Assembly: GCA_000004985.1 (NCBI GenBank) | Contig: GG738928.1 | DNA length: 64,000 bases | Source: Naegleria gruberi | Lineage: Eukaryota | Direction: 5' to 3' (one strand) | Part shown: positions 10,601 to 45,172 of the stretch, piece after piece | How the letters are laid out: every line of letters starts with the position of its first letter | Position numbering within the stretch: the first letter of the stretch is position 1 | The notes under the pieces: model-generated | Database searches by the model: none | Seen by the model: the letters and a program-made list of their open reading frames with translations, nothing else | What the model was told of the DNA's origin: nothing | Program-made: the position numbers and the translations under genes

Positions 10601-13076
10601 NNNNNNNNNNNNNNNNNNNNNNNNNNNNNNNNNNNNNNNNNNNNNNNNNNNNNNNNNNNNNNNNNNNNNNNNNNNNNNNNNNNNNNNNNNNNNNNNNNNN
10701 NNNNNNNNNNNNNNNNNNNNNNNNNNNNNNNNNNNNNNNNNNNNNNNNNNNNNNNNNNNNNNNNNNNNNNNNNNNNNNNNNNNNNNNNNNNNNNNNNNNN
10801 NNNNNNNNNNNNNNNNNNNNNNNNNNNNNNNNNNNNNNNNNNNNNNNNNNNNNNNNNNNNNNNNNNNNNNNNNNNNNNNNNNNNNNNNNNNNNNNNNNNN
10901 NNNNNNNNNNNNNNNNNNNNNNNNNNNNNNNNNNNNNNNNNNNNNNNNNNNNNNNNNNNNNNNNNNNNNNNNNNNNNNNNNNNNNNNNNNNNNNNNNNNN
11001 NNNNNNNNNNNNNNNNNNNNNNNNNNNNNNNNNNNNNNNNNNNNNNNNNNNNNNNNNNNNNNNNNNNNNNNNNNNNNNNNNNNNNNNNNNNNNNNNNNNN
11101 NNNNNNNNNNNNNNNNNNNNNNNNNNNNNNNNNNNNNNNNNNNNNNNNNNNNNNNNNNNNNNNNNNNNNNNNNNNNNNNNNNNNNNNNNNNNNNNNNNNN
11201 NNNNNNNNNNNNNNNNNNNNNNNNNNNNNNNNNNNNNNNNNNNNNNNNNNNNNNNNNNNNNNNNNNNNNNNNNNNNNNNNNNNNNNNNNNNNNNNNNNNN
11301 NNNNNNNNNNNNNNNNNNNNNNNNNNNNNNNNNNNNNNNNNNNNNNNNNNNNNNNNNNNNNNNNNNNNNNNNNNNNNNNNNNNNNNNNNNNNNNNNNNNN
11401 NNNNNNNNNNNNNNNNNNNNNNNNNNNNNNNNNNNNNNNNNNNNNNNNNNNNNNNNNNNNNNNNNNNNNNNNNNNNNNNNNNNNNNNNNNNNNNNNNNNN
11501 NNNNNNNNNNNNNNNNNNNNNNNNNNNNNNNNNNNNNNNNNNNNNNNNNNNNNNNNNNNNNNNNNNNNNNNNNNNNNNNNNNNNNNNNNNNNNNNNNNNN
11601 NNNNNNNNNNNNNNNNNNNNNNNNNNNNNNNNNNNNNNNNNNNNNNNNNNNNNNNNNNNNNNNNNNNNNNNNNNNNNNNNNNNNNNNNNNNNNNNNNNNN
11701 NNNNNNNNNNNNNNNNNNNNNNNNNNNNNNNNNNNNNNNNNNNNNNNNNNNNNNNNNNNNNNNNNNNNNNNNNNNNNNNNNNNNNNNNNNNNNNNNNNNN
11801 NNNNNNNNNNNNNNNNNNNNNNNNNNNNNNNNNNNNNNNNNNNNNNNNNNNNNNNNNNNNNNNNNNNNNNNNNNNNNNNNNNNNNNNNNNNNNNNNNNNN
11901 NNNNNNNNNNNNNNNNNNNNNNNNNNNNNNNNNNNNNNNNNNNNNNNNNNNNNNNNNNNNNNNNNNNNNNNNNNNNNNNNNNNNNNNNNNNNNNNNNNNN
12001 NNNNNNNNNNNNNNNNNNNNNNNNNNNNNNNNNNNNNNNNNNNNNNNNNNNNNNNNNNNNNNNNNNNNNNNNNNNNNNNNNNNNNNNNNNNNNNNNNNNN
12101 NNNNNNNNNNNNNNNNNNNNNNNNNNNNNNNNNNNNNNNNNNNNNNNNNNNNNNNNNNNNNNNNNNNNNNNNNNNNNNNNNNNNNNNNNNNNNNNNNNNN
12201 NNNNNNNNNNNNNNNNNNNNNNNNNNNNNNNNNNNNNNNNNNNNNNNNNNNNNNNNNNNNNNNNNNNNNNNNNNNNNNNNNNNNNNNNNNNNNNNNNNNN
12301 NNNNNNNNNNNNNNNNNNNNNNNNNNNNNNNNNNNNNNNNNNNNNNNNNNNNNNNNNNNNNNNNNNNNNNNNNNNNNNNNNNNNNNNNNNNNNNNNNNNN
12401 NNNNNNNNNNNNNNNNNNNNNNNNNNNNNNNNNNNNNNNNNNNNNNNNNNNNNNNNNNNNNNNNNNNNNNNNNNNNNNNNNNNNNNNNNNNNNNNNNNNN
12501 NNNNNNNNNNNNNNNNNNNNNNNNNNNNNNNNNNNNNNNNNNNNNNNNNNNNNNNNNNNNNNNNNNNNNNNNNNNNNNNNNNNNNNNNNNNNNNNNNNNN
12601 NNNNNNNNNNNNNNNNNNNNNNNNNNNNNNNNNNNNNNNNNNNNNNNNNNNNNNNNNNNNNNNNNNNNNNNNNNNNNNNNNNNNNNNNNNNNNNNNNNNN
12701 NNNNNNNNNNNNNNNNNNNNNNNNNNNNNNNNNNNNNNNNNNNNNNNNNNNNNNNNNNNNNNNNNNNNNNNNNNNNNNNNNNNNNNNNNNNNNNNNNNNN
12801 NNNNNNNNNNNNNNNNNNNNNNNNNNNNNNNNNNNNNNNNNNNNNNNNNNNNNNNNNNNNNNNNNNNNNNNNNNNNNNNNNNNNNNNNNNNNNNNNNNNN
12901 NNNNNNNNNNNNNNNNNNNNNNNNNNNNNNNNNNNNNNNNNNNNNNNNNNNNNNNNNNNNNNNNNNNNNNNNNNNNNNNNNNNNNNNNNNNNNNNNNNNN
13001 NNNNNNNNNNNNNNNNNNNNNNNNNNNNNNNNNNNNNNNNNNNNNNNNNNNNNNNNNNNNNNNNNNNNNNNNNNNN
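7696..13076. other. Unresolved N-run (5381 N)
   Basis: All bases are N. The ORFs 6558..13160, 7632..13094, 7652..13090 and 7657..13239 are X-filled artefacts except for the real segment 6558..7695. Confidence 0.99.
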
Positions 13077-13873: not shown

Positions 13874-13923
13874 NNNNNNNNNNNNNNNNNNNNNNNNNNN
13901 NNNNNNNNNNNNNNNNNNNNNNN
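13874..13923. other. Short N-run (50 N) at the edge of a repeat copy
   Basis: All bases are N. A partial copy of repeat C starts immediately after it. Confidence 0.99.
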
Positions 13924-14235
13924 TGTCAACACTTAATATATCTTAGTGAACACTCCATCTCAATGAAAGTACATCCAATAATCCTGTAACTTTACAAATT
14001 ACGTTTAATCACACTATTATACATCTGGTATCAATTTTATAGTGTTAGAATTGAATTCAATATGATAATAATAACAATCTTTCAAAATGTCACATTTCAA
14101 TATATAGAATATACTCCATCTCAGTCAATTTACAATATATCATACAAGTATCAAGTATGGATATACTCCCCTAGATGAGGAGAACAATCTGAGAAAGTTT
14201 CATGTTCATGGCTCTGTATCTTCAAGTCAACTAAG
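13924..14235. repeat. Dispersed repeat family C, copy 0 (includes the last roughly 25 bp of family B)
   Basis: Aligns with 16915..17190 and 21590..21850. Shared blocks include tagtgaacactccatctcagtgaaagt..ataataataacaatctttcaaaatgtcacatttcaa..ctccatctcagtca. Confidence 0.7.
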
Positions 14236-16255: not shown

Positions 16256-16470
16256 TCTTTCAATAAGGCAAAGGGTGAAATTTCAAGGTTGTCTTTGGAA
16301 GATCAGGAGGAAATCTTGAATATAGAGAACCAAATCCTCAATCTACAAAATACATATCAATCGATTGGAAATCAATAGTACATCTCGAAAATATCATTTA
16401 TTTTATGTTTTGAAATCTCTCCTTGACCTCTTTTAGTCAATTAAGACAATTAAGGATGAGACTATAGGAA

Positions 16471-17190
16471 AAGTTACCAATCTCAAAATAAATGATAATA
16501 TCGTGTTCCACATCTCAAATAAAGTGGACTTTCTTCAAATTATATATTTTCATTTCAATAAATGCATCCGTTAGATAGTACATGGTGATATTTCAATGGA
16601 ATGGATGGAAATCTGAAAGGTACAGAAACAACTCCATTTTCACTTAAATCAATATCATTACATGTAGACGCTCTAATTAGAATATGATATCAATTTCATG
16701 AATATTGGTTCAGTAGATGTCGACATGTCAACTCTATCAATTTACTATAGACATTTGACATGATATCATAGATTAAGCTCCAACTCACTCATTTTACGTA
16801 CAATCAGTCTAGAAATGATGATAAATAATATACACATCTATAAAATACATCTACAATAGTTTAAAAACGTTTCAAACTACTTTCATAAAATTAATCAGTA
16901 AATGTTCAATGTCAATCCTAGGTATACCATAGTGAACACTTCATCTCAGTGAAGGTACACCCAATCATCCTATAACTTTGCCAGATACGTTTAATCATAC
17001 TATTGTACATATTGTATTAATTTTAGATATTCTGAATAGAAATTGACTTGATAATAATAACAATCTGTCAAAAAAGTAACTTTTCAATATATAGAATACG
17101 CTCCAGCTCATTCAGTTTGTATAATATCAAACAAGTATGAAACATGAACACATTCCTATTGGTGATAGGTACAATCTGAGAAAGATTCAT
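16471..17190. repeat. Composite dispersed repeat B+C, copy 1
   Basis: Aligns along its whole length with 21141..21850. Shared text runs from aagttaccaatctcaaaataaatgataatatcgtgttc.acatctcaaataaagtggacttt through ctccatctcagtca. Confidence 0.75.
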
Positions 17191-17214: not shown

Positions 17215-19700
17215 CATACAAGAATTGAATCAAGTATCCATTTACTTGGATTGAACTTTACATAAGCACACCGGGTTTGAGCCACACCAAGCTCATTTGA
17301 GAAAGTGTAATTTAATTTTACAACGGGTTTGAGCCACACCATGTTCATTTGAAACAATTTCAAGTCGTTTTTACATCGGGTTTGACGACAACCACTGTTT
17401 AAAGATAACATTTGTGAAAAATCGACTGATCTCAATCATTATTAAGAATTTGAGTATACTCCAATGGAATGTTACCATCTACATACAGTTTAGAACATTT
17501 TCCATCCCCTTGTAAAAATTCCTTAATAATTTTGAAATATTCAAAGTTCAGTAAGAATGCAAAAATTTTAATTTGTTGTATAGTATAATACAGTATCATC
17601 AAAAAGTTGGATAACTCATTCTTTTGAAAAGAAGCAACGGGTTTGAGCCACTCCACGTTCATTTGAAACAATTTCAAAAAGTTTTTACATCGGGTTGGAT
17701 GACAACCATTGTTTTAAAGATTACAGTTGTGAAAAATCGACTGATCTCAATCATTTCTGAGAATTTAAGTATACTGTAAAGGACTGGTACCATTTCTATC
17801 GAGTTTTGAACATTTTCCATCTACTTGAAAAAATTCCTTACTAATTGTGAAGTAAGAAAAGTTCAGTAAGAATGTAAAAATTTTAATTTGTTGTATAGTA
17901 TAATACAGTCTTGTCAAAAGGTTGGATACGTCACTCTTTCGAAAAGAAGCAACGGGTTTGAGCCACTCCACGTTCATTTGAAACAATTTCAAACAGTTTT
18001 TACATCGGGTTGGATAACAACCATTGTTTTAAAGATTACAGTTGTGAAAAAATGGCAAATCTCAATCATTTTTGAGAATTTAACTATACTGTAAAAGACT
18101 GTCACCATTTCCATCGAGTTTTGAACATTTTCCAATCACTTGTAAAAAATTCTTAATAATTGTGAACTACTCAAAGTTCACTAAGATAGAAATATTTCAT
18201 AAACTTATAGTTCCTTATTGTAAGGAATTGTCAAAAGGTCTGAAATCCACTTTCATGAATATAATCAACAGGTTTGAGCCAATCCATGTTCATTTGAAAC
18301 AATTTCAAACAGTTTTTACATCGGGTTGGATGACAACCACTGTTTTAAAGATTACAGTTGTGAAAAAATGGAAAATCTCAATCATTATGGATATTTTGAG
18401 TATACTCCAATGGAATGTTACTATCTACATACAGTTTAGAACATTTTCCATCCCCTTGTAAAAATTCCTTAATAATTTTGAAATATTCAAAGTTCAGTAA
18501 GATTGCAAACAATTTACTTTGTTGAATAGTGTATTACAGCCTCATCACAATCGATCAGGAACTTTTTTGAAAAGAAGCAACGGGTTTGAGCCACTCCAAG
18601 CTCATTTGAAACAGTTTCAAAAAGTTTTTACATCGGGTTGGATGACAACCACTGTTTTAAAGATTACAGTTGTGAAAAAATGGCAAATCTCAATCATTTT
18701 TGAGAATTTAAGTATACTGTAAAGGACTGGTACCATTTCCATCGAGTTTTGAACATTTTCCATCTACTTGAAAAAATTCCTTACTAATTGTGAAATATTC
18801 AAAGTTCAGTAAGAAAGTTTAATTGTGAAAATGTTGCCAGAATACCAGTTAAAATTGTATTCCGATTGAATTTTACGTAAGCACACCGGGTTTGAGCCAC
18901 ACCAAGCTCATTTAAGAAAGTTTAATTTAATTTTACAACGGGTTTGAGCCAGTCCATGGAGTTGTTAGTAAAGAGTGGTTGGATGAAATCACTGTTTCAA
19001 AGATAACAGTTGTGAAAAATCGACCAATCTCAATCATTATTAAGAATTTGAGTATAGTTCAATGGAATTATACCATCTATAGCCAGTTTTGAACATTTTC
19101 CATCGACTTGTAAAAATTCCTTAATAATTAGGATGAAGGAAAAGTTCACTAAGAAAAGACAATGTTAATTTGTTGAACAGTATTGTACAATCCCCACCTA
19201 AAGGTTGAATAAGTCACTCTTTTGAGAAGAAGCAACGGGTTTGAGCAACTCCAAGCTCATTTGAAACATTTAATAGTAGTTGTTACATCGGGTTGGATGA
19301 CAACCACTGTTTTAAAGATTACAGTTGTGAAAAATAGACTGATCTCAATCATTATTGAGAATTTAAGTACACTTTAAAGGACTGCCACCATTTCCATCGA
19401 TTTTGGAACATTTTCCATCTACTTGAAACAATNNNNNNNNNNNNNNNNNNNNNNNNNNNNNNNNNNNNNNNNNNNNNNNNNNCATTTGAAACAATTTCAA
19501 ACAGTTTTAATCGGGTTGGATGACAACCATTGTTTAAAAGATAACAGTTGTGAAAAAATGGCAAATCTCAATCATTTCTTAGAATTTAACTATGCTGTAA
19601 CGGAATGTTACCATCTACAGCAATTTTAGAACACTTTCCATCTACTTGAAACAATTCCTTAATAATTATGATGCAAGCAAAGTTCACTAAGAAAAGAATA
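17215..19700. repeat. Tandem satellite array, about 8 units with period roughly 300-330 bp
   Basis: A conserved core (caacgggtttgagccactccacgttcatttgaaacaatttcaaacagtttttacatcgggttggatgacaaccactgttttaaagattacagttgtgaaaaaatggcaaatctcaatcatt..gagaatttaagtatactgtaaaggactg..ccatttccatcgagttttgaacattttccatc) recurs at about 17636, 17951, 18272, 18587, 18937, 19238 and 19483, with shortened variants at 17272 and 18887. A 50-N run lies inside the array. The repeated small ORFs here (MKLFQMNVEWLKPVASF...) derive from the repeat. Confidence 0.8.
19433..19482. other. Short N-run (50 N) inside the satellite array
   Basis: All bases are N. Confidence 0.99.
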
Positions 19701-21126
19701 TTTCAAAAACTTATTGTTGGTGGAATGATTCTGCACAACTATAGAGCATCTCCTTGTTCCGATATTGTACATGTGGATATTAGTAAAAAAACCACCACTA
19801 TAACAAAATTTTTTGTTTTGGTCCAACAGATGATGAGAATTGGCACTTGTAAATGTTGAAAATAATGTTATACCAATTCTACATCATACACAACTTGGCT
19901 ACTTATCCATCATTTACAAAATGATACAATTGAAATAAATATCATATCTCAATTTAAATATAGAGATGGTCAATTAAGGTACCTCAATAGGGAAGTACCC
20001 TAAGGACAATGAGATTCAATACCAAATTGATACAATATGTTATTAACATCATATAATGAGGTTTCTATCAATTTCAAATCATTTGGACATCATTCAGTAT
20101 TCATGCCATTTAACCATGTCACTAACTACTCATGATAATATGACAAGTCAATATCAAGATGTTCAACAAGATAGAATATCATACAAATACTCTTATAATT
20201 GATGTTCATAACGTATTTGAGTGATACAAATCAATATCTATATAATTGGACTATCTGTCAAGCTACTGTCCTAATTGACAAAAAGGTAACATTCTTACAT
20301 GTCATGAATGGTAATAATCAACACCAATTCAATACTACCATGTTATAATCATCAAATACTCTCATCGAATCAATTTTGGAATGATTTCAATATCATCTTA
20401 GATAGTTATCATATGACAAAGTTACTACCTTAGTGAACTACCCACGTCATTAATAAATGTCTAAAACCAAATCTTTCAATTATATATTCATATATATATC
20501 AATAATAGTGTATAATATCAGTTTTATAATATATAATCAATTATTGGTATGATGGCAATATTTCAATTAAACATTGACATTGCAACATTTCGCAAATTGG
20601 AAATATAGGTCATAACATCATGATATTCAACATTTAGTGATAAAGTAAAACGATGACATATATTATCCAATAAAATATTCAGATCCCTTTAAAAGTGTTA
20701 ACCACATCAAAAGCTCCCCATGCAAGTTGACTTCCAAAAGTCTCAAAATGGATCCAATCATGATTTTTTCAGTGATATATGATTACCATTCATATTCACT
20801 ACTGTATTTATCAGTATTATTGAATTTTATTGTGTTTCCATATTATAGGTCAACATCTTGGTCAATTAATCATTTACTAGTAGAAAAGCTACAAGGAAAT
20901 GTTTCTCTCTAGTCACCACCCAATAACCTCCTCTTCATGAAGAAGAGTTCCAAATCTTGAGATGAGAACCTTGTTCACTTTCAATATGTTGAATTAATGC
21001 AACCACTTTCCCATTCTTCTATCAAGTGTTGTCACAATAAGAAGCTTCTGATTCGTATCAACAATAAACAATTTCAAAATCTTAAATCAATAAGAGATTG
21101 GAGTAAGAGGTATCCGAGGTTCGTAG

Positions 21127-21140
21127 AACCAAACCCAAAG
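21127..21140. repeat. Interstitial telomere-like seed (aaccaaacccaaag) immediately 5' of repeat B copy 2
   Basis: Seen directly at the junction with copy 2 of repeat B. Copy 1 of B (16471) lacks the seed. Confidence 0.45.
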
Positions 21141-21850
21141 TTACCAATCTCAAAATAAATGATAATATCGTGTTCTACATCTCAAATAAAGTGGACTTTC
21201 ATCAAATTATATATTTTCATTTCAAGAAATGCATCCAGTAGATAGTACATGGTGATTTGTCAGGAGAATGGATGGAAATCTGAAGGGTCCAGAAACAACT
21301 CCAATTTAACTGAAATTGATATCATGGTATGTAGACACTCTAATTAGTATGTGGTATCAATTTCATGAATATTGGTTCAGTAGATGTCGAGATGTCAACA
21401 CTATCAATTTACTATAGACATTTGACATAATATCATAGATTATACTCCAACTCACTCATTTTACATATAATAAGTCTAGAATTGATACCACATAGTCTAT
21501 ATATCAATTAATATACATCTACAATAGTTAAGAAACATTTCAAACTATTTTCATAAAATTAATCAGTAAATGTTCAATATCAACATTATATATATCCTAG
21601 TGAACACTCCATCTCAGTGAAAGTTATTCCAATCATTCTGTAACTTTACCCAATACGTTTAATCACATTATTATACATCTGGTATCAATTGCATACAGTT
21701 AGAATTGAATTCAATATGATAATAATAACAATCTTTCAAAATGTCACATTTCAAAAAAAAGATTACACTCCATCTCAGTCAGTTTACAAATATCATACTA
21801 GTATCAAATATGAATACACTCCTCTTGATGAGGATCTGAGAAGTTTCAAT
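21141..21850. repeat. Composite dispersed repeat B+C, copy 2
   Basis: Aligns with 16471..17190 at roughly 85% identity, with indels. Confidence 0.75.
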
Positions 21851-32680: not shown

Positions 32681-33282
32681 ATGCAAAATGAAGTGTTTGT
32701 GGATTTAAATGCTGTTTTGAAAGTGGACGAAAGTTGTTTAAACTATCGGAATGGAATGGAATTGATAGAAATGGCAAGAAACAAAACTAATGTAAATGAT
32801 CTTCCATTTGATGATCTTCTTCATGTGAGTTTATATTTAAATTGTAATTTCCAATTATTTTAAAGATATTCGAATATTTAGATCGAAAGAGTTTATTGAT
32901 TTCTTCTAGTGTGAATCGATATTTTAATAAGGTTGCAAATTCAGATTATTTATGGATAGGAGAACATGGTTTGATACAAGAAAGTGCAGTGGAAAATTGT
33001 AAAATTTATTCGAAACATCACAAAATTGGAAATTTGAAACTTTGGAGAAAATTCTCTTTTAAACGAATAGATAATTTACAACAATTTAAAACTGAATTTC
33101 TTTCAGAAACGAATCCTGTCCAAAATTCATATCAAACGAATCTATTGGAAAGCAATGGAAACTCATTTAAGGAAATATATGCAATCTACAAAAAACAACA
33201 ATTAATCAGAACAAGAACTCTGAAAATTGAGGGAGATCTTGACGCTATTAATACCAATAAGAGCAATTATACAACACTATGA
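32681..33282 (+). CDS. F-box protein. Two exons: 32681..32824 and 32866..33282. The intron at 32825..32865 is 41 nt (GTGAGT...TTTTAAAG).
   Basis: The spliced product carries a canonical F-box start, NDLPFDDLLH|IFEYLDRKSLLISSSVNRYFNKV. The frame is maintained across the intron. The ORF ends at TGA 33280..33282. Confidence 0.55.
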
Positions 33283-36885: not shown

Positions 36886-37157
36886 TTTGTTTTTTTTTAA
36901 TTTTGATAAACTTTTGGCGGGTTATTTTCGTTACCTTACTGTATATTTCCTTATCATTAATTCCGAAGAGTTATTTATTGTCCAAGATAATAGTTTACTG
37001 TCTTATTATCAATCTCCTTAGTAGGCATTGTTGTTCAAAGCATGAGGAATATATTTATAGGTTTTATTTTTATATATTTATATAATATTATGAGATTTCA
37101 TTCCATATTCACGGAATACCTTTTCATCTCACATTTGAAATTGTTATATTGTAACAA

Positions 37158-38231
37158 TTACTCGTCATCCTTGACAGGAAATTTAAAAGAATTGAGTCTA
37201 CTCTTCAATTCGAATAATTCTTCTCTATTAACATGGCTTCTAAGGAGAGAACTCGTAGAATTTTGCTTGACAAAGGCATCTTTTGAATTCAAGGCAGCCA
37301 AGAACTTTGGTGAAGAAGCTCTCTTGCCGAACATTCTTGGAGGAATGGCTGGTGCAGTGAATGTATTGACATTGCAACAAAGAAAGTCAATATCTATCAG
37401 TGAGTCTGTGGTTGTACTCACAGCATCACTCAAACATTGTGAGCTACTATAAGTATCAAAATCTGGATCATCATCTGAATAGATAGATATTGGTGTGTCA
37501 AGTTCTATGAGGCTGATTGACATCTTCCTCGATTCCTTACTAGAAGGAGCTATTGGAGCATTATCAACAAGGATAACGATACTACTTTTACGTGAGAGGG
37601 AAGGTTTACAAGGTTTTTGGTTGGTACAAATGGAGGATACTTGAGGAGGAACAACATGTTCAGTAAAATCAGAAAGAGAGGTACCTGAAAATACAGAACT
37701 GAAAGAGGAATCAAATGTTGTGGAAGTGACACTCTCTTTGAATGTCTCACTCAATGGTTCTATTGATGGAGAGGTAGGATAAAGCGCATCTAGGTCTACA
37801 AGCATGAACATGCTCTCACACTTGAAAACTTGAAGGAAGAGACTCAAAAAGACACTGAAGTAGAGATAAATTTTGGAGAGCAGGGAGGGAGAAGATGTAA
37901 TTGGGGAAGAAGAGGTAGTAGTTGGCAAAGATGCCACTTGTTGTTGTTGATCTTGGTTATCCTTCTCAACATGTTGGAATGACGCATCGTTCAAAGATGA
38001 TAATGAATTTGTAAGCGCAGATATTGTAGGGGAATATTCTTGATTCACTGCCTGGATTGGCGTTAATGGTGTTGTTGGAGGCGATGATATTACATCCTGT
38101 TGTTCTGCATTAGAACAACTCTCAAGCTTGAATCTTTTCATACTTTTTAAAGGAGAGAGAATGGTATGAGAGTTTGGTTGTGATGAGATGATTGTTTGCA
38201 AGGAAACGTTCGCATGACTTTCATCAAGCAT
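37158..38231 (-). CDS. Ser/Thr-rich single-pass membrane protein, family member A of a four-gene paralog cluster, ending ...EELFELKSRLNSFKFPVKDDE
   Basis: A 357-aa ORF with a low-complexity S/T/Q-rich N-terminal half and one hydrophobic segment (IYLYFSVFLSLFLQVFKCESMFMLV). Its C-terminal motif is shared with B, C and D. Confidence 0.5.
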   Translation of the reverse strand: MLDESHANVSLQTIISSQPNSHTILSPLKSMKRFKLESCSNAEQQDVISSPPTTPLTPIQAVNQEYSPTISALTNSLSSLNDASFQHVEKDNQDQQQQVASLPTTTSSSPITSSPSLLSKIYLYFSVFLSLFLQVFKCESMFMLVDLDALYPTSPSIEPLSETFKESVTSTTFDSSFSSVFSGTSLSDFTEHVVPPQVSSICTNQKPCKPSLSRKSSIVILVDNAPIAPSSKESRKMSISLIELDTPISIYSDDDPDFDTYSSSQCLSDAVSTTTDSLIDIDFLCCNVNTFTAPAIPPRMFGKRASSPKFLAALNSKDAFVKQNSTSSLLRSHVNREELFELKSRLNSFKFPVKDDE

Positions 38232-38571
38232 ATTAATAGTCCCTTGAAGATATTAAAAGAGAGAGATTGTGGTGCTAATAAGAAAAAACAACAAGGTTGT
38301 ATTGAGGGTGATTGAGTGTTTTTTTTCTGTTGTTTTATCTCGCAATATATGTGCGTAGCGTATATGCGTGACTACGGTTATTAACTAAAATTATCGAAAT
38401 ATCCAACTATTAAGGTGCTAGGAAAGACATTTCTAGGTTTAGAAATTAATGCATCCATATATGTATTGCTTGTAAGAATCCAGCAAATAATTTTCTCTTA
38501 ATGTTTAAATCATACACTGTATGATCAAGAGGAGGCGAAAATTCAAAAATCCTGTGCATACATTCAATGTG

Positions 38572-39807
38572 CTATGGAAATGAATATAATTCCAATCTCT
38601 TCTTGAGCTCTCTAATTTCCTCAATATTTGAAAATGATTTGCTGAGAGATAGTTTTGGAGCTGTTGAAGTTGTTGAGAGATCGTCCCTTGAACCATGTCT
38701 GGTAGGATCACTCTTGCTCCTTCTTCGTTCCTGATTTGTTTCCTCATTACTGCAATTGTCAGTATGCACAAGAGAGGAAAACGAAAAACTTTTCAGTAAA
38801 TGTGTAAAATTCCTAAGGTACGGTATAGAGAGAGTTGAAGATGGTTTTTTCTGTTGAGCAAATGCGTCGTTTACAGTCATTGCCTTAGATGGTGAATGAT
38901 TCTTATTAGTGGAAGCAGCATTTGTACTGATTTTTCCCCACCATGTAAAATCATGTTCATGCATTTCCTGATTATTATTGAGGCATTCAGAGAGAAGATT
39001 ATCATGACCCAATGTTGAAGAATTAGTGGTAGATGAGGTTGGAGAATCGAAGGAACAAATTTCATCCAAAGCAGACATGTGATGACTGGCTCTGACAATG
39101 GAAATGACACAACCTGACAGCCAAACCAAGATGCTCCACATGCTAACTAGTATGCCAAAAATCCATGAAGAGCTGTTTTTTGATTCTCTCAGAGATGATT
39201 CTGCTCCTTCAGTTATCGTTATTGATGATGATCGTGATGGCTTCCTATTAGATGTATTAATCGTTGGTATTGTTATTGAATTATCTTCCTCTTTTGTGTT
39301 ATTACTATTACTCGTGCTATGATCACCTTCGATTAGTGTTTCGAATGTTTTTTCATTCATTACTGCATGTGCATGGTCATTATTTTGCTGCACATCTACA
39401 TGAAAAGGATATGTTTCTGAATGCTCCATGTAATGTTCTTGTTTTGACATGTCATTCATGAATTGTGAAATACTTGCTCTTCTATCATAGTGAGCAGAGG
39501 TTATATTATCAATGGTTGATGTTGTTGTTGAAGAAATTGTTGATGTTCTTCGACTAATAGGTATTGCAGAGTAGGAGGTAAATAGTGATGTTGTGGAAGA
39601 AAGGGAGCTCGTAGATTCATCAGGATTCAGAGTTGTTGATGGTGTAGTGGAATCTCCTTCGGTTATTGTCGTTAGCTGTTGTTGTTCATCATTAGTTTCA
39701 TCAATATACGATGAAACATCCAACAAGGTTTCGTTCAGATTAGTTTCTCTTTTCGTTTTGAATTGAGAAAGATGTATCATCATGAATATAACATGTATTT
39801 TAAACAA
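38572..39807 (-). CDS. Ser/Thr-rich single-pass membrane protein, family member B, ending ...IEEIRELKKRLELYSFP
   Basis: A 411-aa ORF with an S/T-rich mucin-like N-terminal region, a TM segment (SSWIFGILVSMWSILVWLSGCVISIV) and a C-terminal motif matching A, C and D. Confidence 0.5.
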   Translation of the reverse strand: MFKIHVIFMMIHLSQFKTKRETNLNETLLDVSSYIDETNDEQQQLTTITEGDSTTPSTTLNPDESTSSLSSTTSLFTSYSAIPISRRTSTISSTTTSTIDNITSAHYDRRASISQFMNDMSKQEHYMEHSETYPFHVDVQQNNDHAHAVMNEKTFETLIEGDHSTSNSNNTKEEDNSITIPTINTSNRKPSRSSSITITEGAESSLRESKNSSSWIFGILVSMWSILVWLSGCVISIVRASHHMSALDEICSFDSPTSSTTNSSTLGHDNLLSECLNNNQEMHEHDFTWWGKISTNAASTNKNHSPSKAMTVNDAFAQQKKPSSTLSIPYLRNFTHLLKSFSFSSLVHTDNCSNEETNQERRRSKSDPTRHGSRDDLSTTSTAPKLSLSKSFSNIEEIRELKKRLELYSFP

Positions 39808-40190
39808 TTAGTGTGTGAAGAAAAATTCGCACAGTTACTGAGAGGACTGTTTTTTACTGCTTGTTGGAGTAAACTATAATGTTGTGATGAGTGTTTAGCT
39901 ATTTTGTTTCTTATTGCGACAAAAAGTAAGAAAGGAAGGCAGGGTTGACAATTTAGGGGTAAAACATTTGTGCACAAAGTACCTTTAAGGAAGGCACTCT
40001 ATACATTTCAGTCACTCCTCATTGTAAACACTCAACTGAACTGGTGTGCAAAAGATGCAAAAAAGTATTGCGTCTATTTTAACCAACTTGGTAAGAATGG
40101 AAACTCTTCACACTATTGAGTCTCTCTTGGGGTGAGGTGATTCGAGAACTAGGTTAGATTCATTATTGTTGTTTTACACCAAGAATTGAA

Positions 40191-41441
40191 TTACGGAAAT
40201 TTGTAATTTTCTAACCTTTCCTTGAGGTAAATTACTTCTTCCATTGTAAAATTTTGCAAATAATTGTGATGATGTTGAGAATGCATTGGAATTGCCTCTG
40301 TGTTAGAAGGTACATTTCTATCAAAATTAAGGATCTCGTCCTGAAGACAATTAGTTTCATTTTGGTAACGTCTTGTTTTGAGCTTTGAGTTTTTTCTCTG
40401 GGGCCTTTCGTCTGCATTTAATTCGCATTTGGTAGCTAAGGTTTCGATATTTGGCTCTTCATTATTCTTCAGTTCACCGTAAACTTTGCCCATTGCCATG
40501 TTTGTTAATTCTTTTGTCTTGGGTATGTCACCACTCGTCCATGAATTGTATTTCATTGAAATGTCTTCATGTTTTGGTGATTCGAATGTGATGGTTGCTT
40601 GTTGGTTTCTAGGTGATGCTGCCGTCTCAATTGCATTCCACGAACTACAGTTATTATGTCCACCCAATTGTTGAAATGATTGTGTTTGCCTATTATTCGA
40701 ATGTTTTGGTGTATTATTCATTGAAGAGCTCTCTGAATTAAACACAAGCTCAGATCGATCCAATTTCCAAAAGATTGTTGTTCTCTTCACTCTCGGTGAG
40801 GATTTCATCTCAGCAGGTGATGTTGGAAAGCTAATTGCTTTTCTACACAATGTTGGATCCAAATAATGATTCATTAAGGTGTGAATATCATCTTTTGAAG
40901 CTGAGGTGTGAAAAGTATGACATTTGGCTGTGCAGCCATAGCTTGTTAATTCTTTGGCTGCCGATTCATCCATTGAATTTCTCGTAGTAATTTCATCACA
41001 TGGTGACTCTACACAAACTCCCACAATGGTATGTCTTCTGTGTGCTCGTTTGAATGCACTTTCTTTCTTTGAAAGTTTTCGATTGATATTGGAAATTTTG
41101 ATAGAGATGGAACGAGACAAGTTTCTATCATCATGTAAAAGCTCGAGATGGGAATGATTGTACAATTGATCTTCGCTTTCTTCCTGTGCTAACAAGTGTT
41201 GGAGAATTGAATTGGTCATTACCAGACTTTCATTCCTTTCATCAACTCCTGCACTTCCGAGGCCACTGGCCAATCTTCCAACACTAAATATTAATTGAAT
41301 TAAATTCAACAGACAAAGAAGCCAATCATAGAATATGTGCAGAATGGTCTTGCTGCCCGATGATGAATTATTACTCTCAATAGTGGTGGTATCACTGCTA
41401 TTGTTGTTATTTGATGATGTATTTGAAGAATTATTCGTCAT
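40191..41441 (-). CDS. Ser/Thr/Asn-rich single-pass membrane protein, family member C, ending ...EEVIYLKERLENYKFP
   Basis: A 416-aa ORF with an N-terminal poly-S/N stretch, a TM segment (ILHIFYDWLLCLLNLIQLIFSVG), a long tail and the conserved C-terminal motif. Confidence 0.5.
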   Translation of the reverse strand: MTNNSSNTSSNNNNSSDTTTIESNNSSSGSKTILHIFYDWLLCLLNLIQLIFSVGRLASGLGSAGVDERNESLVMTNSILQHLLAQEESEDQLYNHSHLELLHDDRNLSRSISIKISNINRKLSKKESAFKRAHRRHTIVGVCVESPCDEITTRNSMDESAAKELTSYGCTAKCHTFHTSASKDDIHTLMNHYLDPTLCRKAISFPTSPAEMKSSPRVKRTTIFWKLDRSELVFNSESSSMNNTPKHSNNRQTQSFQQLGGHNNCSSWNAIETAASPRNQQATITFESPKHEDISMKYNSWTSGDIPKTKELTNMAMGKVYGELKNNEEPNIETLATKCELNADERPQRKNSKLKTRRYQNETNCLQDEILNFDRNVPSNTEAIPMHSQHHHNYLQNFTMEEVIYLKERLENYKFP

Positions 41442-42727
41442 GATGAAAAAGTTCTTGGTTTTGATGAAGGCGATGCTGATGAGGAATTTGATATTTGTTT
41501 ACAGAACAAATCATCAATGAATGTGGTGAACCAGTTCTTGAATCTGCTAGCAGATTAGAATGTCCAACAACAAGTTTCCTAATCACAACAACAAATCTCC
41601 TCTGTGTTGTTTTAAAAAGGAAGTAATTGGTAAATTGAAAATTATTGGTAAAATCTAACGAGAACACGTGATAAGTCGACCAGAGTCTGGATAATACGCT
41701 CCTCTCAGAACTTTGTTCCAATGATTAATAAAACAATCTTATATTGTTGCCTATTGATGTTTTGTTGGTTTGTTTTTTGAAAGAGAAACATCAACAATAC
41801 CTGTTGCAACCCAACAGCAAATTCGGAAGGAGGACAAATTTGTTTTTAGACACCTGGGTAGCACAAATGGTCACACTGCTATTCGCACAACAATGAATCT
41901 TAATACTGTGTGTTATATTTTAATAAGCACGCATTTCTGAAGATTGAGATTCTATGGCGCTTTGGAGTCTAATTCGGATCTTAATGTTTACAGAAGATAA
42001 ATGTTTAAGATATTAATAGTCATACCAATACTAATTATTGTCTTGGTCAAGTCTTGCCGTGATCATATTGCCGAATAACAGTTCTCATCAAAAAGTGTAA
42101 TATTGATGAATATGGTGATGAGGACAACATTCTAGATATCAATTTTTGACCGTATGAAATCCAAATGAATATCATAATGAATAGTAATGAACTGCATCTT
42201 GATCGTAAATGTTGAAGGGATCATATCAATTTGTAGAGAAAGGTTCCTTTTTCAATTAGGAAAATAACTGATGGTTTCTGAATTATTTCACCACATATCA
42301 AGCATGAAAATAAAGATCTACTCATCTGTTCATCGATGAAAGTAATCAATAAGTGGGTGAATGGATACAGCAACTTGAAGAAAGGTTTAGTCCTAGTAAT
42401 ACATGAAGACAGTTATTATGATCCTACTGATGATAATTAAATTGTCGTTGTATTACAATACTACAATAATACTTATTACCAAATTATTGACCTTGTATGC
42501 CATCTATTGAAACAGATCATTGTAACCAATTGGTCTCTTATCATTTTAATCCAAAAGTACTTTCTTTTTTGTGGTTGGTGTTCTTGCATCTTCCGTGTTC
42601 ACTTCTTTCTAAAAAAGGTCGTTCTTTTTCCCTGAATTGAGAAAATTGAAGCAAATCATGATAATAAATAGCAACGACTTCATTTCATATATTACAATCA
42701 AAACAAAAGAACAACAATCCTAACACA

Positions 42728-43525
42728 ATGATAAACACTTCTGATATTGCCACACAAAACTATTTCAATGATCATTCCATGTCATTGAAAATTCAATCGA
42801 TTTCGAATAGTAATTTCATCTTGCTTTCCTTCATGATGAGCATGTACTTGCTGACAGTTGGCTACTATTTAATCTTGCTGACAGAATGGTTCATCCATAA
42901 ACTCGTAGCTAAAAGACATTCTCTGTATAATAACAATAACTGTGTTGATGACAATTCGCCAACAATGATCAAAAACCAACAAGACGATAGTAATAATAAT
43001 AATTCTGTAATATATACAACAACAACCAACAACGAGTCATCACAACAACAATTAATTAATTCAGAATGTACATTATCCGAGACACCAGAAAATACAAATT
43101 CAAATAATAATCAACACGAAAATGATGAAAGCCTTGCTTCTTATATTCATCCAGATCTTTCTCCATCATCAGTAACTTCAACCTCCGAGAGTATTTTCAC
43201 CTCCAAACCAGCCACAGAGACTGTGCAAGCCGAATCTCTGCTCACCATCTTTAAAGAATTGGTTCAAAGAGTCATTGATATTGAAAAGGAGTGGACAAGA
43301 ATAATTTCTTCCCAATTGGAGAATAGCAAATTGGTTTACTATCATGATAGTTCTGATTCATCGTTGTGTTGTTCGAACTCTTCATCCTCCTCTTCTGATG
43401 ACTATTGTTATGAGAGTGGTAGAACAACTTTCCAGAATGTGAGAATGAGAAGAACAGCCAAATCACCAACCATGAAACGAATGAATTCCTTCCAATTTCC
43501 TCGTGGTATCAACTTTGCTCTGTAA
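42728..43525 (+). CDS. Ser/Thr/Asn-rich membrane protein, family member D, ending ...MKRMNSFQFPRGINFAL; divergent orientation relative to C
   Basis: A 265-aa ORF with a TM segment (ILLSFMMSMYLLTVGYYLILLTEWFI), an S/N/Q-rich middle and a C-terminal NSFQFP block like the NSFKFP of member A. Confidence 0.45.
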   Translation: MINTSDIATQNYFNDHSMSLKIQSISNSNFILLSFMMSMYLLTVGYYLILLTEWFIHKLVAKRHSLYNNNNCVDDNSPTMIKNQQDDSNNNNSVIYTTTTNNESSQQQLINSECTLSETPENTNSNNNQHENDESLASYIHPDLSPSSVTSTSESIFTSKPATETVQAESLLTIFKELVQRVIDIEKEWTRIISSQLENSKLVYYHDSSDSSLCCSNSSSSSSDDYCYESGRTTFQNVRMRRTAKSPTMKRMNSFQFPRGINFAL

Positions 43526-43852
43526 AATAAAACTTAATATATGATCCCTTTAATTCATCATTAAAAATCTAACCGTTACACAAATTCCCTCCAAGAGAAT
43601 TAGCTGGAAAAAAATATTTCTATTCAACACAATAATATGAATTCCCTCTGCAAGAGTTTCACTTCATCATCATGAAGGAAATTCTTTGGTAATTCCTCTA
43701 GAAACTATTTCAAACTATATGAAGAGGAGAAGTATCCCGAATCAAGATCATCAATATATTAAACAAAATAACTCTATTCAATAATATTATAGTTGATAGT
43801 GTTATAATAACTACTTCATTAGAAATATATTCATAATAATAATAATTAGAAA

Positions 43853-45172
43853 ATGGTCATGTTAGAAAAACAAACTTGTTTGAATTTTGGTGCTAGTGAG
43901 ACTTCCTCTTTTTCCTTTGGTGCTGCTACAACTGCTGCTTCCACTTCCAATACCAACACTTCTTCCACAACAACCACTACAACTTCTCAACCAGTTAGCT
44001 CTTCCTTTGGTACTACCACAACACCTTCAGCAACTACATTTTCCTTTCAACCACTTCCAACAACAACAACAAGTAACAATACCAAACCAATAACAGGTTC
44101 CTGCTTTGGTACAACACCAAATCCTACAAGTACACAACCTCCTTTGGCAAGCACTGGTGCAACTTTTGGATCTTTTTCAGCTACACAAGCTCCTAGTTCT
44201 ACTGGAGGATTTGGTACATCACCATTTGGTTCTGTTCAAGCCACCACTGCAAGCAACAGCAATCCATCTGTTGGTTTTAATTTGAATTGTACATCTACCG
44301 TATTCCAAACCTCTACCGTCAATACTGGAGATTATATTCCTCTTAGTGGTCCTAATGGTATTGATTTGATTAAAAAGTGCACTAATTTCAGCGATTTGGA
44401 TATTAAGATTCTTTCCAATGACAAAGTATACACTACTTTAAGTTGCAACAGAGTACTAATCACTAATTTATCCGACAAATTCGATAAATTGGTCAAGAAT
44501 AAGATTGTTAAGGATTCTGACAAGTTTATTCTCACAATTTCTACTGAGGAATTTGAATCAAGTATTGGAAAAATTGATGCTCAAGTTTTGACTCACTTGT
44601 TTGAATGTATTGTTAGGGAATCAACTCAAGTGCATGTTAATCACTCATTCCATTTACTGGTTCTTCTCAATCAATTGGATTTATTGAGTACTATGAGAAT
44701 TTTAAGAAACTTGATTTGTAACAGCTTTACACAACCACATGCTCTTTTATTCGCCACTAAATTCAATAATTACTATACTGAAGGTCGTACGGTTAATGTT
44801 GAATTAATGAGTTTGTTCCTCACCTCTATTAACAATGTAGTTGGTGGAATTGACAAGATTTCAAATCAATTTGCGTTTGGAAAAATTAATCAACATCTCT
44901 TAGAACATTTCCTCAGCTCTAAATCCAAGACAGCTCCTTTGAGATGCATCTTTCATTCTATTGATATTTGGTTGGAAAGCAACAAGACCATTGCAAGTGA
45001 TCCTATTCAAGTGGCCACTCTTGTTGATTCCATTCATTTAGAAGCATCAAAGGATCATTCTCAAATTATTTCAACTCTCAGTTGTTGCCCATCCAGATTC
45101 CAATTCCTCAATACTTTGGATCCAGTTATGCGTTTGAAACTTATTCACAAACATGCCCTTCTCATTAAATAA
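43853..45172 (+). CDS. FG-repeat (nucleoporin-like) low-complexity N-terminus followed by a globular C-terminal domain, possibly BTB-like; hypothetical
   Basis: The N-terminal 150 aa are rich in S/T with repeated FG dipeptides (SFGAAT, SFGTTT, CFGTT, TFGSFS, GFGTSPFGS). The C-terminal segment DIKILSNDKVYTTLSCNRVLITNLSDKFDKLV...FILTISTEEFESSIGKIDAQVLTHLFECIV resembles a BTB fold. Confidence 0.45.
   Translation: MVMLEKQTCLNFGASETSSFSFGAATTAASTSNTNTSSTTTTTTSQPVSSSFGTTTTPSATTFSFQPLPTTTTSNNTKPITGSCFGTTPNPTSTQPPLASTGATFGSFSATQAPSSTGGFGTSPFGSVQATTASNSNPSVGFNLNCTSTVFQTSTVNTGDYIPLSGPNGIDLIKKCTNFSDLDIKILSNDKVYTTLSCNRVLITNLSDKFDKLVKNKIVKDSDKFILTISTEEFESSIGKIDAQVLTHLFECIVRESTQVHVNHSFHLLVLLNQLDLLSTMRILRNLICNSFTQPHALLFATKFNNYYTEGRTVNVELMSLFLTSINNVVGGIDKISNQFAFGKINQHLLEHFLSSKSKTAPLRCIFHSIDIWLESNKTIASDPIQVATLVDSIHLEASKDHSQIISTLSCCPSRFQFLNTLDPVMRLKLIHKHALLIK

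Follow-up and report, generated by a model that had tools for sequence, protein, structure and literature searches.

A lineage-restricted cluster of divergent putative membrane proteins with a common C-terminal tail in Naegleria gruberi

In the window analyzed in this work (64,000 nucleotides of the Naegleria gruberi contig GG738928.1), four adjacent genes, named here A, B, C and D, code for proteins that have only one element in common, that is, a short C-terminal tail. The comparison of the four sequences supports the idea of a short linear motif on which selection acts at the protein level, and docking or sorting is probably its function. Concerning the proteins as a whole, the explanation that we consider the best one, and to which we assign roughly even chances, is that they form a family of membrane-tethered disordered chains exposing a helix for partner docking or sorting. 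A preliminary description of the same DNA had interpreted the cluster as a candidate family of mucin-like receptors or sensors, possibly coupled to a MAP kinase module; the lineage-specific cluster, the divergent bodies and the conserved C-terminal short linear motif are all maintained here, but neither the mucin-like character nor the kinase docking is.

Organization and coding status of the four genes

The open reading frames (ORFs) of the preliminary description were all recovered, at the same coordinates and on the same strands: A, B and C are arranged in tandem on the minus strand, and D is adjacent to them and divergently oriented. Gene A (37158..38231, minus strand) codes for 357 amino acids, and the corresponding NCBI model (EFC36605/NAEGRDRAFT_54265) adopts a later Met as start (37158-38141, 327 aa). 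Gene B (38572..39783, minus strand) codes for 403 amino acids counted from the first ATG, at 39783; the start at 39807 is a TTG deriving from a bacterial-code ORF list. Gene C (40191..41441, minus strand) codes for 416 amino acids. Gene B is devoid of a separate annotation, being fused with C in the NCBI model EFC36606/NAEGRDRAFT_59959 (800 aa), where the last seven codons and the stop of C are spliced out and B follows; if C and B were such a single spliced gene, then the tail of C would be intronic. Gene D (42728..43525, plus strand) codes for a protein of 265 amino acids identical to EFC36568/NAEGRDRAFT_75704. ORFs of this neighborhood correspond exactly to the N. gruberi entries EFC36604, EFC36607, EFC36567, EFC36568 and EFC36569.

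The four ORFs are real protein-coding genes. They remain open over 265-416 codons despite the composition of the DNA (about 35% GC), and the comparison with 98-99% identical contigs of a second strain, which covered A, the 3' part of B, and C, revealed that the reading frames are preserved. Gene A differs from its strain variant (P0014/L002) by three synonymous and five non-synonymous SNPs and by one in-frame insertion of 18 bp, the frame being kept; the 156 3' codons of B differ from contig L002 by one synonymous and three non-synonymous SNPs, with no indels; and C differs from its 99% identical variant (P0001/L001) by five synonymous and three non-synonymous SNPs, with no indels in the ORF and indels of 1, 1, 5 and 1 bp in its flanks. 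Pooling the three comparisons, 9 synonymous and 11 non-synonymous SNPs were counted and the 18-bp, in-frame one is the sole internal indel, whereas 12 of the 13 indels of the surrounding non-coding DNA are not multiples of three. Within the tails, the only strain polymorphism is L339I in A, at a position occupied by I in B and by V in C.

Conservation and extent of the C-terminal tail

As quoted in the preliminary description, the proteins end with REELFELKSRLNSFKFPVKDDE (A), IEEIRELKKRLELYSFP (B), MEEVIYLKERLENYKFP (C) and MKRMNSFQFPRGINFAL (D), each followed by the stop, and the motif R[LM]xx[FY]xFP falls within eight residues of the stop codon in all four. The idea that conservation concerns the extreme C-terminus has to be refined, since the motif is strictly terminal in B and C but is followed by five residues in A and by seven in D. 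More precisely, the tail of A (SLLRSHVNREELFELKSRLNSFKFP, 37176..37250, minus strand) contains a core 16-mer (37176-37223) followed by VKDDE, and those of B (SLSKSFSNIEEIRELKKRLELYSFP, 38575..38649, minus strand; core 16-mer 38575-38622) and C (NYLQNFTMEEVIYLKERLENYKFP, 40194..40265, minus strand; core 16-mer 40194-40241) run directly into the stop codon. The three have in common a longer block, EEhxxLKxRLxx[FY]xFP. D shares only the last 9-10 residues, within a partial tail (MKRMNSFQFP, corresponding to KSRLNSFKFP of A; 43472..43501, plus strand) with an S-P nine residues upstream of FQFP. F15 and P16 are invariant in the four proteins.

The conserved unit of A, B and C thus spans 16-25 residues and consists of an amphipathic helix plus a cap. 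AlphaFold2, run in single-sequence mode on B and C with low overall confidence (mean pLDDT 40-47), predicted in B a helix at residues 387-398 (IEEIRELKKRLE, pLDDT 64-72) followed by a non-helical LYSFP, and in C a helix at residues 400-412 (pLDDT ~72) followed by a non-helical YKFP, so that in both models the helix stops just before [FY]xFP. About three quarters of the residues of the two models have a pLDDT below 50, and only the terminal helix (~64-72) and a hydrophobic helix (~80-88) exceed this background.

The conservation of the tail in A, B and C is at the protein level and does not reflect recent gene conversion, since about half of the identical residues are specified by different codons: in pairwise comparisons 9-10 of the 16 core residues are identical, 4-5 of these with different codons, and nucleotide identity is 56-62%. 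It is barely conceivable, in our opinion, that the common tail represents a coincidence due to chance or low complexity, the product of a recent gene conversion, or a feature of ORFs that are not genes. In favor of this view, the bodies are low-complexity and unrelated, and single 10-mer tail matches are barely above the maxima of shuffled sequences (the A-D tail 10-mer scores 36, against 33 for the 95th percentile of the null). However, among the ORFs of the window (34,321 aa) R[LM]..[FY].FP occurs four times, against 0.04 expected from shuffles, and the four occurrences are those of the adjacent genes A to D, each close to its stop codon; in shuffled versions of D the pattern appeared in 8.5e-5 of the trials, and within the last 25 amino acids in 5e-6. 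Moreover, A, B and C score 66-78 bits against a profile (HMM) built from their own tails, the next ORF of the window reaching 7 bits; the codon differences speak against gene conversion, and the exclusively in-frame indels within A, the 3' part of B, and C against the ORFs not being genes. The same profile did not recover D among the ORFs of the window. D is a probable distant member of the family on the basis of its 9-10-residue match, its adjacency and its architecture.

The proposal of a lineage-specific family also stood. When the tail profile was searched against 1.84e9 representative proteins, C and A were the sole genuine matches and the other two were spurious repeat peptides, with a floor of about 36 bits (E <= 1e-3 over 1.84e9 sequences) below which any weak D-like members elsewhere in the genome would be missed. 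A full-length search with C returned its own 99% identical variant as sole match, no Pfam domain was matched, the PDB gave no meaningful match, and the literature searched does not mention these genes. As judged from sequence searches, this is a tiny lineage-restricted family, so far known only from N. gruberi.

Protein bodies, hydrophobic segments and orientation

The four proteins are indeed rich in Ser, Thr and Asn (S+T+N = 30-37%), and disorder is predicted for their bodies. Once the tails are removed, their pairwise similarity is no more than that due to composition (z <= 1.6), in agreement with the high divergence noticed previously; the best ungapped 10-mers in common are the tails, the remaining ones being N/S runs. 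No tandem repeats were found in the genes.

Each protein possesses exactly one hydrophobic segment, as previously proposed, but as transmembrane helices on a Hessa-type scale only those of B and D are strong, those of A and C being marginal. The segment of A (LLSKIYLYFSVFLSLFLQVFKCESMFMLV, 37797..37883, minus strand) covers residues 117-145 (best 19-mer sum +3.5) and that of C (ILHIFYDWLLCLLNLIQLIFSVGRLAS, 41265..41345, minus strand) residues 33-59 (sum +3.2). The strong candidates are residues 208-230 of B (IFGILVSMWSILVWLSGCVISIV, 39094..39162, minus strand; -1.0 kcal/mol) and residues 30-52 of D (FILLSFMMSMYLLTVGYYLILLT, 42815..42883, plus strand; -1.0 kcal/mol for residues 31-51). The AlphaFold2 hydrophobic helices embrace residues 205-243 in B (pLDDT 84-88) and 33-59 in C (pLDDT 78-84). 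The insertion of A-D into a membrane is suggested by their sequences. An N-terminal signal peptide is absent from all four, the only hydrophobic segments starting at residues 117, 208, 33 and 30. It would be unusual for N-terminal regions as long as those of A and B (115-207 residues) to be translocated in the absence of such a peptide.

According to the flanking charges, the C-terminus of D would be inside (one K+R on the N-terminal side versus three on the C-terminal side, where the basic flank HKLVAKRH lies), A leans in the opposite direction, and B and C are ambiguous. An alternative, which we regard as unlikely, is that the tail is lumenal or extracellular (type II orientation) and, instead of being a cytosolic docking peptide, serves there as ligand, as processing site or in lumenal sorting. 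An N-in/C-out orientation is favored for A and B because a long polar N-terminal region without signal peptide precedes their segment; the charge difference across the segment of A also favors N-in, and B and C carry NxS/T sequons and several Cys residues C-terminal to it. Nevertheless, such sequons are expected from the N/S/T-rich composition alone, the flanks of D favor C-in, and [RK][RK]x[ST], the pattern of basophilic protein kinases, occurs C-terminal to the segment in A, B and C and, in B, on both of its sides. In addition, an amphipathic helix that bears Lys/Arg and adjoins the C-terminus would rather be expected of a cytosolic motif, which counts against a lumenal tail. We are inclined to place the tail in the cytosol.

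Possible roles of the tail

In the explanation that we prefer, the family would have originated by an old local duplication, giving the tandem A, B and C plus D, and the proteins would be long, rapidly drifting, S/T/N-rich disordered chains whose bodies diverge freely, each being anchored on the membrane by its lone hydrophobic helix. In the terminal module, a short alpha-helix of amphipathic character (E-E-h-x-x-L-K-x-R-L-x-x, positions 3, 6 and 10 being hydrophobic) would give way to an aromatic cap that is not helical ([F/Y]-x-F-P). Most likely, this module would dock one common partner, either a signalling enzyme or a factor of trafficking/sorting, onto these membrane-tethered disordered scaffolds, its hydrophobic face and invariant Lys/Arg contacting a groove of the partner.

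As far as the partner is concerned, the tail fits, besides [FY]xFP, several permissive patterns, i.e., approximately MIM1, a class 1a nuclear export signal and the calmodulin 1-5-10 spacing, and therefore a pattern match alone is not evidence. There is a slender chance that the helix is MIM1-like and recruits an MIT-domain protein (VPS4, Vta1/LIP5, a spastin- or katanin-type ATPase), thereby connecting these membrane proteins with ESCRT-dependent sorting. In A, B and C the tail is predicted to form a C-terminal amphipathic helix, like the MIM1 of CHMP1/2-class ESCRT-III proteins. Its L-K-x-R-L-x-x-[FY]-(K/S) is preceded by acidic residues, has the L-x-x-R-L-x-x-hydrophobic spacing and in many cases a basic residue behind it, and resembles the consensus (D/E)xxLxxRLxxL(R/K) (PMC6862464); the C-terminal helix of aquaporin-2, proposed to bind LIP5, represents a precedent on a membrane protein (PMC6862464). 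However, the resemblance was noticed post hoc, and the strict consensus has no match in the window, including the four proteins: the third Leu is replaced by F or Y in all of them, a hydrophobic residue occupies the acidic position (three residues ahead of the first Leu), only A and C keep a basic residue at the end, and in D the first Leu is missing. When relaxed to L..RL..h, the core is found 10 times in the ORFs of the window against 7.7 expected, MIM1 does not explain the additional invariant F-P, and A-D have no relationship with the Snf7/ESCRT-III fold, as no Pfam match was obtained.

The kinase coupling advanced in the preliminary description, in which the terminal [FY]xFP is a DEF site (F-site) docking an active ERK-type MAP kinase and the proteins are mucin-like surface sensors, appears to be very unlikely, its support stopping at the four-residue pattern. 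In the published F-site, the FxFP comes after an S/T-P acceptor (PMC4459106). The FxFP consensus is matched exactly by A (FKFP) and by D (FQFP, the F-site of Elk-1, F395-Q-F-P398), the aromatic-x-Phe-Pro falls in a disordered region with its last two residues invariant, the S-P of D reproduces the usual acceptor-to-F-site arrangement, and the charges flanking the segment of D suggest a cytosolic tail. However, in B and C the first position is Tyr instead of Phe, and an S/T-P within 20 residues upstream exists only in D, the nearest one lying about 43 residues away in A and none being present in B and C. Furthermore, among the residues of the F-site the Pro, which does not vary here, is reported to matter least (PMC4459106). 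The selection on A, B and C embraces at least 12 further residues that have no part in a DEF site, and [FY].FP is frequent by chance and weakly specific, since it was observed 17 times in the ORFs of the window against eight expected by shuffling. Nothing specific links the tail to MAP kinases.

The attribute "mucin-like" does not hold either, the hallmarks of mucins being absent: there is neither a signal peptide nor repeats, Pro content is low (2.6-7.3%), and the basophilic-kinase pattern flanks the segment of B on both sides. The concept behind the mucin-sensor hypothesis is that of the fungal signalling mucins Msb2 and Hkr1, which act upstream of the Kss1/Hog1 MAPK pathways. In these mucins a signal peptide is followed by a large repeat domain, extracellular and rich in Ser/Thr/Pro, and the transmembrane segment is near the C-terminus. 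A-D resemble them as S/T-rich, putative single-pass membrane proteins, but differ by the lack of a signal peptide and of repeats, by the low Pro content and by the position of the hydrophobic segment, which is variable and often N-proximal. A different analogy is offered by protist surface-protein families such as the variant surface proteins (VSPs) of Giardia, which comprise hundreds of members with hypervariable bodies, Cys-rich folded ectodomains and an invariant five-residue C-terminal tail, CRGKA, immediately preceded by the transmembrane segment. Like the VSPs, A-D are paralogues that occur in clusters, are restricted to one lineage and have kept nothing in common but a short C-terminal peptide; unlike them, the family described here counts three or four members with disordered bodies, and 200-350 residues separate its tail from the hydrophobic segment.

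Gene models and the shared C-terminal block

The four ORFs of the cluster, embedded in a region of about 32-36% GC, were recovered at the coordinates and on the strands previously described, and with the same C-terminal ends. A (37158-38231), B (38572-39807) and C (40191-41441) lie in tandem on the minus strand and end in REELFELKSRLNSFKFPVKDDE, IEEIRELKKRLELYSFP and MEEVIYLKERLENYKFP, respectively, and the adjacent divergent gene D (42728-43525, plus strand) ends in MKRMNSFQFPRGINFAL, a stop codon following in each case. An EF-hand gene lies on either side of the cluster, and the products of the two, EFC36604 (35974-36885, minus strand) and EFC36607 (45551-46537, minus strand), are paralogues with 54% identity over 219 aa. 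These two, together with EFC36568 (that is, D), EFC36567 and EFC36569, are window ORFs with exact NCBI matches, all belonging to one 160,583-bp scaffold. The NCBI entry for A (EFC36605, listed as P0011) begins at a later Met, and B is listed from a TTG at 39807, a start that only the bacterial code used by the ORF tool permits; from its first ATG, at 39783, the protein has 403 aa.

The public annotation of C and B is of a different kind. Indeed, EFC36606 (NAEGRDRAFT_59959, 800 aa) joins C to B through a predicted intron of roughly 465 bp, running from about 40215 to about 39748 (the 3' end being obtained by coordinate arithmetic), which excises the LENYKFP of C along with its stop codon. Since C shares its conserved tail with A and B, and a stop codon comes immediately after it in the two strains compared below, two separate genes would be the more economical reading, and the fusion is probably an annotation artefact; the public model appears to merge two family members, deleting the conserved tail of one of them.

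The idea that otherwise divergent bodies share a C-terminal motif proved statistically sound when assessed by shuffling, by HMM and by Smith-Waterman comparison. The 34,321 aa of the stop-to-stop ORFs of the window contain the pattern R[LM]..[FY].FP four times, vs. 0.04 times in composition-preserving shuffles, and the four occurrences are those of A, B, C and D; it represents the literal C-terminus in B and C only. An HMM built from the 36 C-terminal residues of A, B and C scored these three proteins at 66-78 bits (E <= 5e-20, window ORF database), no other ORF of the window exceeding 7 bits. D, which has only its last 9-10 residues in common with A/B/C, was not retrieved, and it is just at the level of the 8-residue pattern that its kinship is seen (p about 1e-4 to 5e-6): shuffled versions of D contain R[LM]..[FY].FP in 8.5e-5 of the trials, and inside the last 25 residues in 5e-6.

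Once the tails are removed, the bodies of A-D resemble one another no more than their composition predicts (Smith-Waterman z <= 1.6 vs. 200 shuffles), and colinear full-length homology was not found among the four proteins, whose hydrophobic segment lies at differing positions. The best ungapped 10-mers in any pair are the tails themselves, with scores of 36-37, barely above the 95th percentile of the null, and the search for juxtamembrane or other conserved blocks in A-D returned none above shuffled controls except N/S runs. In A, B and C, the core of the tail is the 16-mer EEhxxLKxRLxx[FY]xFP (positions 1-16 below). Directly before its E-E, A and B carry S-L-x-[RK]-S-[HF]-x-N, and C is similar after a one-residue deletion, so that in these three proteins the block extends to about 25 residues, with the pattern [SN]-x-x-x-[SN]-[FH]-x-x-x-E-E-h-x-x-L-K-x-R-L-x-x-[FY]-x-F-P. 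On the whole, A, B and C are a small tandem family with D as a probable distant member, and the one element conserved in it is an amphipathic helix at the C-terminus that runs into an aromatic-x-Phe-Pro cap. The family would provide a small and clean example of disordered paralogues losing all similarity but a functional linear motif.

A possible fifth member at 33027-33038 (minus strand, ending in RLKENFLQSFKFPIL) was discarded, as it is not among the ORFs of at least 120 aa and lies in AT-rich DNA. The tail was also considered as an exon end with a splice donor common after "FP", a possibility rejected on the grounds that B and C have stops directly after CCA/CCG and that, on inspection, the DNA downstream of the four genes has no obvious likeness.

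Strain comparison and distribution of the family

The ENA metagenome ERZ929261/ERR1078381 (PRJEB11402) contains contigs that match this N. gruberi locus at 98-99% identity and presumably come from a closely related strain. One of them (L001) spans C, its final ~110 bases extending past its BLAST alignment with the window; the other (L002) runs from the 3' end of B through all of A into the beginning of the EF-hand gene. Compared with this strain, C shows five synonymous and three non-synonymous differences and no indels in the ORF, A shows three synonymous and five non-synonymous differences and a single 18-bp in-frame insertion, and the last 156 codons of B show one synonymous and three non-synonymous differences, again with no indels in the ORF. 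The non-coding DNA around the three genes has 13 indels, 12 of which are of 1, 2 or 5 bp, that is, not multiples of three; the neighbouring EF-hand ORF has a 3-bp deletion, in frame. The pooled dN/dS, a rough hand estimate, is about 0.4, a value which indicates that A, B and C are coding sequences under relaxed constraint.

The sole strain difference within the 16-residue tails is L339I in A, at a position where the paralogues have L, I or V. Any two paralogues have 9-10 of the 16 residues in common, 4-5 of them being encoded by different codons (e.g., across the three tails, TTG/CTC/CTC at L6, CTC/TTG/TTA at L10 and CCT/CCA/CCG at P16), and the nucleotide identity is 56-62%. This codon divergence rules out recent gene conversion as the source of the tail identity; it indicates that the duplication is old and that the tail has been held by selection at the protein level.

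The HMMER profile of the tail was compared with 1.84 billion representative proteins, and retrieved C (78 bits) and A (71 bits), with E-values of 2.5e-17 and 5.8e-15, two unrelated repeat peptides and nothing else; the detection floor of this search was about 36 bits, below which matches of the D level fall. A homology search with full-length C found its own 99% strain variant only, and a word-indexed search with the tail alignment gave no candidate having three 5-residue words in common. The concatenated A+B+D query yielded 8000 low-complexity candidates, none with E <= 10, a search so swamped as to be uninformative on absence. Neither C nor the EF-hand neighbour had an exact entry in the contig index, and two scans of JGI metagenomes, one with the tail alignment and one, aimed at syntenic contigs of other Naegleria, with that of the flanking EF-hand paralogues, gave no confirmed match. 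No Pfam family exceeded the threshold, A and D giving sub-threshold noise only (Slx4, ZIP), and the PDB sequence search with the tail profile gave no match above chance level (a helix in RMI1, E = 0.05). Lastly, the literature searched contained nothing on Naegleria FxFP, nor on the locus tags or accessions of the A-D genes. On the basis of these protein, Pfam, PDB, metagenome and literature searches, the family is detectable only here and appears to be new and confined to this lineage. The scope is a narrow one (four genes, no homologue detected in another organism or sample). Very few sorting or signalling motifs have so far been defined in Naegleria, which branches deeply, lives freely and is related to the pathogen N. 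fowleri.

Hydrophobic segment and possible partners of the tail

Each protein has one hydrophobic segment, starting at residue 117 in A, 208 in B, 33 in C and 30 in D. Scored on a Hessa-type scale, the segments of B (208-230) and D (31-51) come out as strong, both near -1 kcal/mol, and those of A (+3.5) and C (+3.2) as marginal; the runner-up segment scores +8 or worse in each of the four. Judged by its flanking charges, D would be C-in and A N-in, with no preference for B and C, the counts being contradictory between members. In the single-sequence AlphaFold2 models of C and B, which are of low overall confidence (mean pLDDT 40 and 47, respectively), about three in four residues have pLDDT < 50, and the hydrophobic segment is modelled as a helix (33-59 in C, pLDDT 78-84; 205-243 in B, pLDDT 84-88 at the core). 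Each of the A-D proteins is predicted to be largely disordered and is probably anchored in a membrane.

Their description as mucin-like surface proteins is not supported by simple tests. S, T and N do account for 30-37% of each protein; nevertheless, Pro/Thr/Ser-rich repeats are absent and proline reaches just 2.6-7.3%, the N-termini are polar and without a signal peptide (by a simple hydropathy test), and Tandem Repeats Finder reported for 37000-43700 only trivial AT-rich arrays of 8-12 bp in 2-5 copies. Besides, the basophilic-kinase pattern [RK][RK]x[ST] flanks the hydrophobic segment of B on both sides.

As for the tail, the AlphaFold2 models give a terminal helix in both proteins, at 400-412 in C (MEEVIYLKERLEN, pLDDT ~72) and at 387-398 in B (IEEIRELKKRLE, pLDDT 64-72), the final 4-5 residues, including [FY]xFP, being non-helical in both. 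The hydrophobic residues of the 16-mer at positions 3, 6, 10 and 13 would lie on one helix face and are followed by F15-P16. The most likely mechanism, to which we give about even weight for and against, is that the tail acts as a partner-docking or sorting peptide; that it binds at all is inferred from its conservation, and its cytosolic location is likewise inferred. If so, a peptide of 16-25 residues with clear point mutants would offer a handle on both the partner and the membrane compartment.

The preliminary description matched [FY]xFP to the DEF (F-site) consensus and saw in the proteins sensors possibly coupled to a MAPK module, a speculative reading that is now in part contradicted. 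The DEF core F-x-F-P is matched by A (FKFP) and D (FQFP), and position 1 is Tyr rather than Phe in B (YSFP) and C (YKFP). The published F-site consists of FxFP preceded by an S/T-P acceptor, and of its residues the proline matters least (PMC4459106). An S/T-P near the motif is found in D only (an S-P 9 residues upstream, within 20 residues), the nearest S-P of A being ~43 residues upstream and none occurring in the last 40 residues of B and C. The core is also cheap, since [FY].FP has 17 matches in the 34,321 aa of the window ORFs vs. 8.25 +/- 2.6 in shuffles, and the excess over chance stems from the longer R[LM]xx[FY]xFP block rather than from the DEF core. Lastly, the selection acting on A, B and C spans at least 12 residues beyond it. 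A working F-site would also be expected to face the cytosol or nucleus and to bind the F-recruitment site of active ERK; as to the side of the membrane, the positive-inside counts of the four proteins disagree.

A different lead concerns the helix, whose L-x-x-R-L-x-x-h resembles MIM1, a motif that binds MIT domains in a groove formed by their helices 2 and 3, so that an MIT-domain protein might be the partner. The C-terminal amphipathic helix expected of a MIM1 is present in the models of C and B, and aquaporin-2, which binds LIP5, represents a membrane-protein precedent for a MIM1-like helix (PMC6862464). Nevertheless, the strict consensus, (D/E)xxLxxRLxxL(R/K) (PMC6862464), has no match in the window and no member of the family fits it: in A, B and C the third Leu is replaced by F/Y and the acidic position is hydrophobic, and D is without the first Leu. 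Moreover, a relaxed MIM1 core is not enriched in the window ORFs (10 matches vs. 7.7 expected), and MIM1 leaves the invariant F-P unexplained.

Two further spacings are matched by the same residues. The class 1a nuclear export signal recognized by CRM1 has the spacing h-x3-h-x2-h-x-h, which A, B and C match as L6-x3-L10-x2-[FY]13-x-F15; this fit is uninformative, because the class 1a pattern has 856 matches in the window ORFs vs. 759 expected, and an export signal would sit uneasily with a membrane anchor. The 1-5-10 calmodulin spacing is likewise matched by the tail. That one tail can resemble MIM1, export-signal and calmodulin patterns shows that matches to amphipathic-helix patterns are cheap, and these likenesses are regarded here as leads, not tests.

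Returning to the tail as a docking or sorting peptide, a more specific and rather improbable version would see in its 16-25 residues an undescribed docking motif, recruiting one specific cytosolic machine to membrane-tethered disordered scaffolds. The candidates for this machine would be an ERK-type MAPK if the FxFP cap makes the contact, an MIT-domain ATPase if the LxxRLxxh helix does, or either of the EF-hand proteins encoded beside the cluster. If this were true, the helix-plus-cap arrangement would represent a new class of short linear motif, so far found in Naegleria gruberi only.

Other features of the window

In C, residues 143-178 (41016-40908, minus strand) read CVESPC...(21 residues)...CTAKCHTFH, that is, CxxxxC...CxxxC-H-xx-H, an arrangement that might bind metal; AlphaFold2 places short, low-confidence strands in this region. 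Close to the cluster, EFC36567 (34451-35872, plus strand) has a weak F-box match (18 bits, just under the Pfam cut-off), and its C-terminal region is rich in Cys, including CxxC pairs. The first ~150 residues of EFC36569 (439 aa; 43853-45172, plus strand) are S/T-rich with scattered FG/GFG and resemble FG repeats, the remainder of the protein having no Pfam match.

Most of the sequence in the leftmost fifth of the window is missing, with runs of N (assembly gaps) at 1054-6305, 7696-13076, 13874-13923 and 19433-19482, for 10,733 N in total. A tandem array of ~315-bp units occupies 17307-19833, with at least eight copies that are 64-92% identical to the reference copy, and is broken by the 50-N gap at 19433-19482. 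Dispersed repeat copies with 66-91% identity are located at 13926-14203, 16470-17190 and 21137-21789, and also near 1012 and 15952; two of them lie 4.67 kb apart, one on each side of the satellite array. Six-frame translations contain degenerate, similar ORF fragments, and the dispersed repeats are possibly decayed mobile-element copies.
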